This document shows positions 51,001 through 54,000 of a stretch of DNA of 64,000 bases, piece by piece. Source of the DNA: Candidatus Spongiihabitans thiooxidans. Its GTDB lineage: Bacteria; Pseudomonadota; Gammaproteobacteria; Arenicellales; Poriferihabitantaceae. How positions within the stretch are numbered: position 1 is the stretch's first letter; the number at the start of each line of letters is the position of its first letter. Made by a program: the position numbers. The stretch covers positions 12,439-76,438 of the forward strand of contig LFLB01000038.1 in assembly GCA_001543005.1 (NCBI GenBank). The letters are read 5' to 3'.

Positions 51001-54000
51001 CCGCAAATCAGGGTAGCCTATACCGACCTGTTCGTTTTGAGATTGCCGCATTGTGTTAATCGTGTACCTGTTTACCCTCTCATGCGCTTGCCATCTGGAT
51101 CGAACAGGGTCTCGGTAAACAGGGTGGCACGCCTGCGTTCACCCAGAATCTCAATCTCAACCTGCCGACCTTCCTCAATCAATGCAACTGGCAGGAAACC
51201 GATGGCCACGCTCTTTTGCGAATAGTGGGCATAGCCACCGGAGGTGACGAAGCCGACGACATTATTATCATGCCAGATTGGTTCATCTGCGACCACATCA
51301 GCGTCGTCTGCATCCACAATAAAAGTGCATAACTTTCTCGTTGTCCCCTGATTTTTTTCCGCCAGTGCCGCTTCTTTTCCAATAAAATCACGCGGCTTGT
51401 TATAAGCCACGAAACGATCCATACCGGTTTCCAGAGGCGTGTAATCGGGCTTGTATTCCCGCAACCATGCGCCGAAAGATTTTTCCAGACGAAGGCTCAT
51501 CATCGCGCGCATACCAAAAGGGCGTAGCCCTAAATCCCGGCCCGCCTCGTTAAGCACATGATACAGACCGACTTGTTGACTGGCCGGAACGTAAATTTCA
51601 TAGCCCAAATCACCGGTATAGGATACGCGCTGAACAATAGCCTGGCACGGACCGATCTGCATGTGTTGTACGCCAAGAAACGGTAGCGCATCGGTTGAAA
51701 CATCTCCGTACGCCACTCTGGATAATAACTCTCTTGATTTAGGCCCGGCAATCTGGAAACCAATGCGCTGTTGAGAGATGTTTCGGATCTCAACATCGGA
51801 CTCATACAGATGCTGTTCGAACCAGCGCATATGAAAAGACTGGGCAGCGTACGAGGCATTCATCTGGAATACCTCCAAACCCATTTCATCTTCACCCAGT
51901 CTTGATATCGTGAAATCCCCAATCAGCCGGCCGCGCGGGCTTAACATTGGCGACAAGGTTAATCTGCCTGGTTTTGGCATTCTTCCAACCATGATGGTAT
52001 CAATCCAGGCTTCCGCGCCTTGCCCTTTTACCTCGAATTTACTGAAATTATGGATTTCATTGATACCCACGCCATTACGTACCGCATTACATTCTTGTGC
52101 GACGACGGCAAAAGCATTGGAGCGTCGGAATGTCGGATTTTCATAAGGTTGTTCGCCCGGCGGTGCGAAATAGTTCACTTGCTCCATACCATATCCTGAA
52201 CCGAACACCGCATTGTGCTGCTGCCAGATTCCATAAGCCGGCGTGGTTTTGAACGGTCGTGCCGCCGGCAATTCTTCATTGGGGTAAGACACAGAAAATC
52301 GGCGTTGGTAGTTCTCGGTAACTTTTAGTCGGGTATAGGATTTGGTGCAGTAATCGCCAAAACGTGAAATATCCATCGCAAACACGTCCCGCGACGGCTC
52401 GCCTTCAATCATCCACTCGGCCAGAATCAACCCAACCCCGCCACCCTGACTGAAACCCGCCATTACGCCACAGGCCGACCAATAATTTCGTAACCCTGGC
52501 ACCGGCCCGACCAACGGATTGCCATCCGGCGCAAAGGTAAACGGGCCGTTAATGATTTGCTTAATGCCTGCTTTTGCCAGTACCGGATATCGCTTAAAGG
52601 CGTTGGCCATGGCATCGCCAATTCGATCAAGATTGTCCTCAAGCAGCTCGTGACCAAAATCCCAGGGGGTACCATCCACGGCCCACGGGACACATTGTTG
52701 TTCATAAAATCCGATAACCAGGCCCTGCCCTTCCTGACGCAAGTAGCTCTCGCCTTCCGGGTCCATGACATGGGGAAGCTCGGTGGGATGATTAACCACT
52801 TCAGCTATTTTTTCTGTGGCTAAATATTGATGCTCCATAGGATGCAATGGCAAATAAACCCCGGCCATTTCCCCGACTTCACGGGCCCATAATCCACCCG
52901 CATTGACCACGTGCTCGGCGATCAAATTGCCCTGTTCGGTAATGATCTCCCAGGTGCCATTACTATTCGGTTTAGTCTCTAAAACGCGATTGCGCAGTAT
53001 GATTTCAGCGCCCTGTTTTTTTGCTGCACGGGCATAGGCATGAGTGGTCCCGGATGGATCAAGATGTCCGTCCAAAGGATCGTAAAGCGCACCGAGCACA
53101 CCATCGGTATTGGTAATGGGCGATAACTCGCGTATTTCTTCAGGGGTAACCAGATGAGTATCCAACCCCATATAGCGATGTTTTGCCCGCTCTGCCCGCA
53201 GATAATCCATCCGGTCCGGTGAACCTGCCAGCGTGATGCCACCGACATGATGCAACCCGCAGCTTTGCCCGGAAATTTCCTCCAGTTCTTTGTACAAACC
53301 GATGGTATAGCCCTGCAAGGCAGCCATATTGGTATCCGCATTCAGGGTATGGAAGCCGCCAGCGGCATGCCAGGTCGAACCAGAGGTTAATTCTGAGCGC
53401 TCGATTAATGTGACATCGCTCCATCCCAATTTTGTCAGATGATAGAGCACGCTACACCCCACTACGCCGCCACCAATAATTGCGACTTGAGTATGTGTTT
53501 TCATAATTGTTTTTATATTTAGTGTTTTTTTGTAACTTACCAAATGGTAAAAGAAGGCTAATAACTTAAGTATTGTGTCCCTCTATTTTACTTTATCTGA
53601 CTGGTCAAATGCCATCCGTCGCTGTATGGGCACTTATATGTCGATAATTTTTGTTCTTGTTCTCGATACAATATTTGCGCTCTTTGTCGCGCGCCTTGTT
53701 CGGTTTCATAGAGTTCTTTTTTACTAGTGAATGCAAGGGGCCGATGGCGTTTGTCGAGCGGCAGGCGATAAATGCCAGTTGCCGCATTTTCTGCATTGAT
53801 ACGGCTTCATCATGGCATCGCCGGTTTGATTGGCATAGTCTGCCACTGACCTAGCATCCTGCGCATTGGAAAACTCGGTTACCGGGGCGCCAGTCGATTT
53901 GCTAAAGCATGTTGTGCTTTTTGAGGACATTAGTGAACTCCATCAGGATAGCGGTTGACAAATTTCATTATATCAAAATCGGTTTGTGAAAGCGCATGTT

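Follow-up and report, generated by a model that had tools for sequence, protein, structure and literature searches.

Based on three-frame translation and alignments, it was concluded that the region directly downstream of the prokaryotic viperin (pVip) gene of Candidatus Spongiihabitans thiooxidans is one gene for a basic protein of ~113 aa, which consists of two homologous modules and belongs to a large unnamed family. The gene was most likely broken recently by a single A within the codon of Cys69, and its intact form probably encodes a zinc- and nucleic-acid-binding accessory of pVip; a probability of about 0.8 was assigned to this reading as a whole. All positions refer to the window, i.e., the whole 64,000-nt stretch of DNA that was analysed.

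Reading frames of the small gene

The following features of the small gene were recorded.

53588-53930, minus strand: disrupted small gene (probable pseudogene) for a two-module Cys3His protein, 113 aa after removal of the extra A (three-frame translation, alignments)
53724-53930, minus strand: 68-aa ORF with module 1 (C8, C46, C49, H53) and the linker as far as its first Cys, ending at the TAG that arises from the insertion
53725, minus strand: extra A, read as T on the plus strand, within the invariant Cys69 codon, TGT to T-A-GT (DNA alignment)
53588-53723, minus strand: module 2 (K71, Y74, A80, C100, H107, WHLT) in the +1 frame, with a TAA stop at 53590-53588

The original prediction described a 68-aa ORF starting at the A of the viperin stop codon (TAATG), and this ORF was confirmed on the minus strand at 53930 to 53724. 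It encodes ...FSNAQDARSVADYANQ...KPYQCRKCGNWHLS and runs into a stop after WHLS, as predicted, but the TAG comes 13 codons past this motif and not 15. From ~53818 to the TAA the +1 frame is open, encoding ...PLAFTSKKELYETEQGARQRAQILYREQEQKLSTYKCPYSDGWHLTSQIK followed by the stop. It had been described as having no ATG, no GTG and no early TTG, and indeed neither an ATG nor a GTG start was found in it, the sole TTG would yield 27 aa, and no ORF of at least 30 aa was listed in this frame. The shifted frame was also said to carry a second copy of the module, and the homology was borne out when the N-module and C-module profiles of the family were compared by hhalign (probability 98.3%, E=1.3e-14, 41 columns).

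It had further been proposed that a one-base change would fuse the two parts, which was correct and gave a protein of 113 aa; however, the base was not located in the GGCCCC run (53737-53742) named as an example. The change was assigned to the A at 53725, which formed a single-column gap in the DNA alignment with three pVip-linked relatives (L004, L021 and L014). The extra A creates an in-frame TAG and shifts module 2 to the +1 frame, and the Cys69 it interrupts was invariant in 67 out of 67 sequences of the family alignment. The short-linker subfamily reads TPSxxCxxC[GNS]K.LY.TE at this place, and without the A the window copy fits the pattern exactly. Another reading, in which P0001 and P0002 served as reference and the break was a net deletion of 17 nt, was dropped, since the short-linker subfamily and the DNA alignment show a one-base insertion.

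Members of the family are expected to have the Cys69 codon within one continuous frame of ~110-125 aa. In the window copy the codon is T-A-GT, the frame stops at TAG and the rest is shifted by +1, hence the locus is a disrupted copy and not a functional member of the family. All family-invariant residues except Cys69 are retained in both halves, thus the lesion is recent. At most a single-module 68-aa product can still be made from the window copy.

Origin and consequences of the insertion

A defect of one base only, with the remaining invariant residues preserved in both halves, is also what a sequencing or assembly error would leave, in which case the strain would have TGT and an unbroken ORF of 113 aa; look-ups of the exact pVip protein sequence retrieved it from this genome and from the Logan assembly of a single run, and from no other source. 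However, the separate assembly of SRR2064712, which may share reads with the deposited assembly, was 100% identical over 421 bases including the break. Indel errors concentrate in homopolymers, whereas the A at 53725 sits between T and G, outside any homopolymer. An error was therefore considered quite unlikely.

Programmed +1 ribosomal frameshifting at CAC-UAG, which would produce the full two-module protein in a prfB-like manner, was regarded as extremely improbable. As in prfB-type frameshifting, the frame ends at a stop beyond which the remainder of a conserved protein can be read in +1, and this +1 frame is open across the junction; +1 shifts classically occur where a stop codon occupies the A site. 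Unlike prfB, the window site has neither a slippery P-site codon nor an SD-like stimulator just upstream, and the His tRNA on CAC would be unable to re-pair on ACU. The shift was also not conserved in orthologues: all nine pVip-linked relatives (9/9) and the retrieved full-length homologues are single-frame. Moreover, the shifted product would read C-I-H-S, with Ser in place of the invariant Cys69. Because the nine pVip-linked relatives are single-frame and the SRR2064712 assembly has the same break, a recent pseudogene was the best reading, rather than programmed frameshifting. Thus, among the three options put forward in the original prediction, namely a recent pseudogene, a sequencing error and a frameshift-dependent product, the first fitted best, and the last was unlikely for the reasons given.

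The truncation might instead be tolerated or even functional, if module 1 with all four of its ligands works as a single-module protein. The 68-aa ORF alone was predicted by AF2 to fold into a beta-beta-alpha-beta-beta unit (pLDDT 80), the Shine-Dalgarno-like motif and the putative coupling to pVip are retained, and stand-alone single modules exist in phages. However, the phage single-module matches in IMG/VR corresponded to module 2 (residues 66-110) and not to module 1, and both modules are kept in all pVip-linked relatives. The 68-aa product was present in no gene caller's record, and no database record of a gene with such a product was found. A functional truncation was judged unlikely, and a recent pseudogene remained the preferred interpretation.

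The two-module family and its putative metal sites

The prediction depended on the modules being conserved in other genomes, and both of them were: the family comprised 704 cluster representatives at E<=1e-3 and 222 at E<=1e-10, most of them 110-125 aa long. Intact single-frame homologues of 117 and 121 aa covered 96% of the query. The module 1 motif, C8 and Y44-x-C46-x2-C49-x2-W-H53-L, is complete in the 68-aa ORF; C46, C49 and H53 are invariant in the family and C8 is present in 66/67 members. The module 2 residues K71, Y74, A80, L95, Y98, C100 and W-H107-L-T were all found in the +1-frame translation.

Each module has three Cys and one His, the set of module 2 being formed by the linker C66xxC69 together with C100 and H107. 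Across the 67 sequences, module 2 had only the linker Cys in 57 cases, only the second knuckle Cys in 9, both in none and neither in 1 (Fisher p=2e-10 for exclusivity, by a test that ignores phylogeny). The linker and knuckle Cys are mutually exclusive, and module 2 therefore holds three Cys and one His in 66/67 members. Judged from the invariant Cys and His residues and this pattern of ligand swapping, two zinc ions are probably bound by the intact protein. Cys residues are lost and gained in a complementary way across the family, which makes two Cys3His metal sites a clear and testable prediction. An AF2 model showed two beta-beta-alpha-beta-beta units (pLDDT 84), the family is basic (median pI 8.95), and we infer that the intact protein probably binds nucleic acid.

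The small protein was matched by no model of Pfam, NCBIfam or PADLOC. A PDB sequence search and two Foldseek searches against PDB yielded nothing significant among solved structures, and tblastn against a phage genome collection gave no match to the small protein.

The islet and the upstream viperin gene

The surroundings of the small gene contain the following features.

53550-55400, no strand assigned: islet of three genes (HTH, pVip, small gene) with low GC, flanked by DMGDH-like and MttB-family genes
53930-54802, minus strand: prokaryotic viperin (pVip), 290 aa, apparently intact (PADLOC, Pfam Radical_SAM, alignment)
54855-55331, plus strand: divergent XRE-type HTH gene (HTH_31/HTH_3, E~1e-14)
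53938-53941, minus strand: GGAG Shine-Dalgarno-like motif, 7 nt 5' of the small gene ATG and still within the last part of pVip

The GC content of the islet was 0.36-0.46, against ~0.50-0.55 in the flanks. The islet of HTH, pVip and small gene was horizontally acquired, and the small gene is its last gene. The DMGDH-like flank is of the dimethylglycine-dehydrogenase type; in relatives, pVip and the small gene adjoin the same DMGDH gene. The XRE-type HTH gene probably regulates the islet; it is likely to start at an internal position, another gene call (L003) having 135 aa.

The neighbour had been taken for a viperin, which was supported: the protein matched the PADLOC pVip profile with E=3.4e-89 at positions 2-262 of 262 and Pfam Radical_SAM with E=5e-14. 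It carries the radical-SAM CxxxCxxC motif, whose C22, C26 and C29 were invariant in an end-to-end alignment with 6 homologues. The upstream gene thus has both the cluster motif and the full-length profile match by which a pVip is recognised. A functional pVip would be expected to make 3'-deoxy-3',4'-didehydro nucleotides and to protect against phage.

The ATG of the small gene uses the A of the pVip stop TAA. An overlap of the two genes is kept in relatives, being 1 nt in L004 and 4 nt in L014 and L021, and is present in L169 as well. The TAATG arrangement suggests that the small gene is translationally coupled to pVip. No RNA elements were found near the small gene, the Rfam scan of the window giving three tRNAs, all far from the locus, and a promoter and terminator scan gave a result no better than shuffled sequence.

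Linkage to pVip across genomes

A survey of other pVip loci for the same neighbour had been suggested. The genome scan for the family was made with an 8-sequence alignment. Starting from the family, pVip was directly upstream in 7 out of 80 loci, where all seven small genes were intact; these pVips fell into two clades, 56-67% and 35-36% identical to the window pVip. The syntenic metagenome contigs L169 and L170 provided two further pVip-linked cases with the same DMGDH flank. Starting from metagenomic pVips, the small gene was found beside none (0/80 loci). The linkage of the family to pVip, from which the original prediction had derived a putative sensor, regulator or anti-viperin immunity partner, is real and recurrent, yet it is a minority arrangement.

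Most family members adjoin neither pVip nor any recognised defence gene. The core function of the family is probably not specific to viperin. Two other upstream neighbours of the small gene were recurrent, namely HEC-08/DUF3644 and a partner of ~600 aa that lacks annotation. In a neighbour-joining tree, which was noisy because the sequences are short, the pVip-linked proteins were not resolved as one clade.

Alternatively, the adjacency could be incidental, with a generic housekeeping zinc protein having been carried along with viperin. Besides the absence from metagenomic pVip loci, this is favoured by the unrelated upstream neighbours in 42/49 scorable loci, such as SelB, an MqnC-like radical SAM enzyme, oxidoreductases, GH71 and HDOD. 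However, pVip was by far the most frequent single upstream partner (7/49), the pairing extends to pVips that share only 35% identity and involves both the short-linker and the long-linker subtypes of the small protein, and the start/stop overlap is conserved. Chance adjacency is negligible because pVip is a rare gene. Incidental linkage was considered doubtful, and an accessory role beside pVip was preferred.

Proposed role of the small protein

In the preferred reading, a single A entered the Cys69 codon, which produced the TAG and the frame shift and left module 2 with no start codon of its own. The intact protein would probably assist pVip in some of the viperin systems, where it takes the 3' slot used by an RNA-binding HicA domain in other pVip operons. 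Loss of the small protein evidently does not entail removal of the pVip gene itself. As a more tentative proposal, the two-module Cys3His protein could be an unrecognised accessory in a subset of viperin defence systems, and perhaps of other defence genes too, with a role as sensor or regulator that binds nucleic acid in a zinc-dependent manner; phage copies with a single module might then be counter-defence mimics.

pVip has been regarded as a defence system of one gene that is occasionally accompanied by kinases, HicA or RelE, and the present finding adds a further conserved partner, which is putatively coupled to it in translation. The partner family is large, with neither a name nor a solved structure, and phages commonly carry its module. 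The window copy is broken and ordinary in itself, and it shows that pVip can persist without the partner; relatives with intact versions at the same chromosomal site offer the natural comparison.

Comparison with known systems

Small accessory genes in pVip operons have been described as HicA of class 9/10, RelE and nucleotide kinases (Gerdes, bioRxiv 10.1101/2023.12.08.570793; Shomar et al., bioRxiv 10.1101/2023.09.13.557418), and cooperation of such partners with viperin has been proposed. A small two-module protein was not found as a viperin partner in the viperin literature searched. As in the window, the HicA-type operons have a short gene directly beside pVip on the same strand, and HicA filled the same 3' slot in 36/80 other pVip loci. 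However, HicA is an alpha-beta-beta-beta-alpha dsRBD, whereas the small protein is predicted to be a doubled beta-beta-alpha-beta-beta unit with Cys3His sites. True pVip-linked HicA proteins do match the HicA profile, but neither the ORF, nor the repaired protein, nor any of the 67 family members did so, and the small protein had no Pfam HicA, RelE or kinase match. It lacks the characteristics of the pVip-associated class 10 HicA toxin.

Zinc-ribbon, treble-clef and CCHC-knuckle proteins (Zn_ribbon_8, DUF4379, zf-C2HC5, RYYR-CCHC; FmdB) resemble the family in being small and basic and in having a CxxC knuckle on a beta-hairpin followed by a His. Their matches were sub-threshold and limited to a minority of members, with best E of about 1e-3 to 1e-4; for the curated zinc-ribbon families of Pfam and NCBIfam no score exceeded the cut-off, and sub-threshold matches were seen in at most 11/67 members. 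The helix between ligand 1 and the knuckle is present in the small-protein family and not in these families.

The signature had been likened to small uncharacterised zinc-ribbon-like proteins from phage and actinobacterial genomes, and the module does occur in small uncharacterised proteins of phages, including actinobacteriophages. The module is shared with PHROG 15216, 10414, 3424, 9124, 16009, 14788 and 1820, all of unknown function, phrog_15216 being matched by 66/67 family members (best E=7e-15). It is also shared with BFVD phage models such as Mycobacterium phage Wildcat Q19Y54 and Caulobacter phage CcrBL9 A0A385EFG2. The top seven Foldseek matches against BFVD had probabilities of ~1.0 and, normalised to target length, TM-scores of 0.44-0.75; their RMSD was 0.6-4.4 A over 41-57 columns, and the fold matches included proteins from phages of Mycobacterium, Gordonia, Streptomyces and Microbacterium. 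In phages the module mostly stands alone, in proteins of 50-100 aa, whereas the cellular family is a fixed fusion of two modules joined by a ligand-sharing linker.

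Organization of the locus

The locus was found to be a low-GC islet of three genes, in which a divergent XRE-type HTH gene was accompanied by the prokaryotic viperin (pVip) gene and a small gene:

53930-54802, minus strand, pVip gene, stop codon TAA
53930-53724, minus strand, 68-aa ORF, ending at TAG

The viperin identity of the upstream gene was confirmed by a match to the PADLOC pVip model (E=3.4e-89, whole profile covered), a match to Radical_SAM and a conserved CxxxCxxC motif. Analysis of the minus-strand sequence and its three-frame translation showed that, as the original prediction had stated, the TAA of pVip and the ATG of the 68-aa ORF shared one A; GGAG was located 7 nt 5' of this ATG. 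The ORF encoded ...KPYQCRKCGNWHLS... followed by TAG. The +1 frame was open through this TAG, encoded ...KKELYETEQGARQRAQILYREQEQKLSTYKCPYSDGWHLTSQIK and ended at 53588. The second module was indeed located in a shifted frame devoid of ATG, GTG or an early TTG: the sole TTG would give 27 aa, and no ORF of at least 30 aa was listed for that frame. Rfam matched the window solely at three tRNA genes, located at 1575-1648, 9564-9637 and 25046-25133 (minus strand), which were unrelated to the small gene.

A family of two-module proteins

When both parts were joined conceptually and used as a query, two intact homologues (117 and 121 aa), each read in a single frame, were retrieved, covering 96% of the query. 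The module proved to be conserved in many other genomes, as in an exhaustive profile search the threshold of E<=1e-3 was passed by 704 cluster representatives and that of E<=1e-10 by 222. Most of the representatives were 110-125 aa long and contained two modules, while a few of 170-540 aa contained three to five. In the latter (P0003-P0013 of the representative search), the copies were spaced by Ser/Asn/Gly-rich low-complexity linkers of eukaryote-like appearance, and the proteins were recorded at source as 'hypothetical protein' or without a name. The family was nameless in every source checked; no Pfam, NCBIfam or PADLOC model matched it at threshold, and no solved structure matched by sequence or by fold. 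On these sequence grounds, the 68-aa ORF and the +1-frame stretch are assigned to a single gene, which belongs to a large family that has no name.

The profile-profile comparison of the N- and C-terminal halves (98.3% probability, E=1.3e-14) indicated that the internal duplication was real, and thus the predicted two tandem copies of one module were borne out. Two beta-beta-alpha-beta-beta units were modeled by AlphaFold2 (pLDDT 84). In a 67-member alignment, C46, C49, H53, C69, K71, Y74, A80, C100 and H107 (numbering of the repaired protein) were invariant, and C8, A26, Y44, L54, L95, Y98, L108 and T109 were at least 90% conserved.

Module 1 comprised C8, the C46xxC49 knuckle and H53, and module 2 comprised C100, H107, the linker C69 and a third Cys of variable origin. 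The latter was a further linker Cys in 57 sequences and the second knuckle Cys in 9, at the position of Ser103 of the window, so the noted replacement of this Cys by Ser was correct. Both alternatives occurred together in none of the sequences, and neither was present in one, which had a CxC variant at the knuckle. This exclusivity was significant across the 67 sequences (Fisher p=2e-10, phylogeny not corrected for). Three Cys and one His per module were kept in 66/67 sequences, as two Cys3His metal sites would predict, and hence the protein probably binds zinc at two sites.

The originally noted resemblance to small uncharacterised phage and actinobacterial proteins was substantiated. The PHROG family phrog_15216 (function unknown) was matched by 66 of the 67 members, the module matched predicted structures of many uncharacterised 50-100-aa phage proteins, including those of Mycobacterium, Gordonia, Streptomyces and Microbacterium phages, and module 2 was present as a single copy on IMG/VR contigs.

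Site and nature of the frame break

Short-linker family members (P0019, P0029, P0055, P0086 and others) shared the motif TPSxxCxxC[GNS]K.LY.TE, and the window reads TPSAPC-ATT-CAC-T[A]GT-AAA-AAA-GAA-CTC-TAT. Dropping the single A at 53725 changed TAG-T to TGT and resulted in ...TPSAPCIHCKKELYETEQGA... in one frame, 113 aa in total. When the DNA was aligned with that of its three closest pVip-linked relatives, a one-column gap was located exactly at this A, within the codon of Cys69, which was invariant in 67/67 sequences. The original reconstruction was largely right: one gene is present and a single-base change fuses both parts, but the GGCCCC run that had been proposed as the break site was rejected by this alignment.

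Three explanations had been considered originally. An extra A introduced by sequencing or assembly appeared improbable, as an identical sequence over 421 bases, break included, was present in a Logan assembly of run SRR2064712 made independently, and the C-T-A-G-T context was not a homopolymer. Programmed +1 frameshifting yielding the full protein was also unlikely: the homologues examined were read in a single frame, no re-pairing of CAC on ACU was possible, an SD-like stimulator was absent upstream, and the product would have Ser instead of the invariant Cys. The sequence favors ordinary single-base pseudogenisation, which was recent, since every other invariant residue was intact in both halves. 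The 68-aa remnant may retain some function, given that its module 1 is complete and predicted to fold by itself.

Linkage to viperin

Scanning a single genome for each species yielded 144 relatives, and 80 loci were kept. pVip was located directly upstream of the small gene in 7/80 loci, forming the largest cluster of upstream partners, and the small gene was intact in all seven:

L004, L021, L014: pVip 56-67% identical to that of the window, short linker, start/stop overlap of 1-4 nt
L035, L069, L070, L075 (Alteromonas, Shewanella): pVip 35-36% identical to that of the window, long linker

In L004, L021 and L014, pVip was preceded by a conserved 99-117-aa gene with the motif ENRFSM.LEY (L004:6197-6550, L021:6221-6547, L014:3715-4014) and by a divergent 130-179-aa gene, the divergent position being occupied by the XRE-type HTH gene in the window; Pfam gave no match for either of two such preceding genes tested. 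A second, more divergent copy of the small gene, with a much shorter linker between its two modules, directly followed the first one behind pVip in L014 (6041-6505). In the Alteromonas and Shewanella loci (~2400-8350), pVip and the zinc-type gene closed a six-gene same-strand cluster, ordered as CHAT-domain (905-916 aa), 309 aa, 191 aa, ParE-like (115 aa), pVip and zinc-type gene. The 905-aa and 191-aa genes of L069 were in pieces, with pVip and the zinc-type gene intact. A putative P4-type integrase gene was located near the L070 cluster and a ResIII-type helicase gene near that of L075.

On metagenome contigs L169 and L170 (ENA ERZ25069810, 1-6336), pVip and an intact small gene adjoined the same DMGDH-like (dimethylglycine-dehydrogenase type) gene as in the window. 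There, the islet was larger and additionally contained genes for a BsoBI-type endonuclease and an N6/N4 DNA-methyltransferase as well as a DAO-domain fragment, which suggests that the chromosomal site beside the DMGDH gene is a variable defence hot-spot.

Other upstream partners were mostly unrelated (SelB, MqnC-like radical SAM enzyme, oxidoreductases, GH71, HDOD). The candidate defence protein HEC-08/DUF3644 (PADLOC E=5.5e-81) was upstream in two loci (L006:6814-7887, L024:6822-7889). Additionally, a homologous unannotated protein of 600-656 aa was encoded directly upstream, overlapping the zinc-type gene, in four widely separated taxa (Polyangia, Rhodocyclaceae, Aeromonas and Oscillospiraceae):

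L066:6016-7983, 600-656-aa protein
L076:6140-7993, 600-656-aa protein
L081:6182-7987, 600-656-aa protein
L082:2040-3875, 600-656-aa protein

It had no PADLOC match, and its only Pfam match was a weak FGE-sulfatase in L076. Together with the zinc-type gene, it may constitute a second mobile two-gene module.

In the survey of other pVip loci proposed with the original prediction, 80 metagenomic loci were covered (L087-L166, with pVip 36-59% identical to that of the window); none of them contained the small gene in a 2.5-kb neighbourhood, even with the cut-off relaxed to E<=10. A HicA-like gene of 63-77 aa was located immediately 3' of pVip in 36 of them (one representative matched Pfam HicA_toxin at E=1.5e-6), and a thymidylate-kinase-like gene occupied the downstream slot in one (L089).

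Proposed role and comparison with known systems

The small gene is broken here with pVip intact, and most family members occur elsewhere. pVip can therefore be maintained without the small protein, whose core activity is probably broader than the viperin context. The family is basic (median pI 8.95, net charge +6), which, along with the small zinc-knuckle-like modules, points to nucleic-acid binding. We propose that the intact protein would act as an accessory in a subset of pVip systems. It is the family that is worth pursuing: widespread, unnamed and structurally uncharacterised, it shares its module with phages and is repeatedly coupled to viperin.

In the literature searched, the pVip partners were HicA, RelE and kinases (Gerdes, bioRxiv 10.1101/2023.12.08.570793; Shomar et al., bioRxiv 10.1101/2023.09.13.557418), and the zinc-type protein described here was not found among them. 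The HicA-like and kinase neighbours observed here correspond to the class 10 hicA genes and kinases already reported beside pVip. Accessory genes of small size are a known feature of pVip operons, and the zinc-type protein, whose position beside pVip is analogous to that of HicA, is a further variant.
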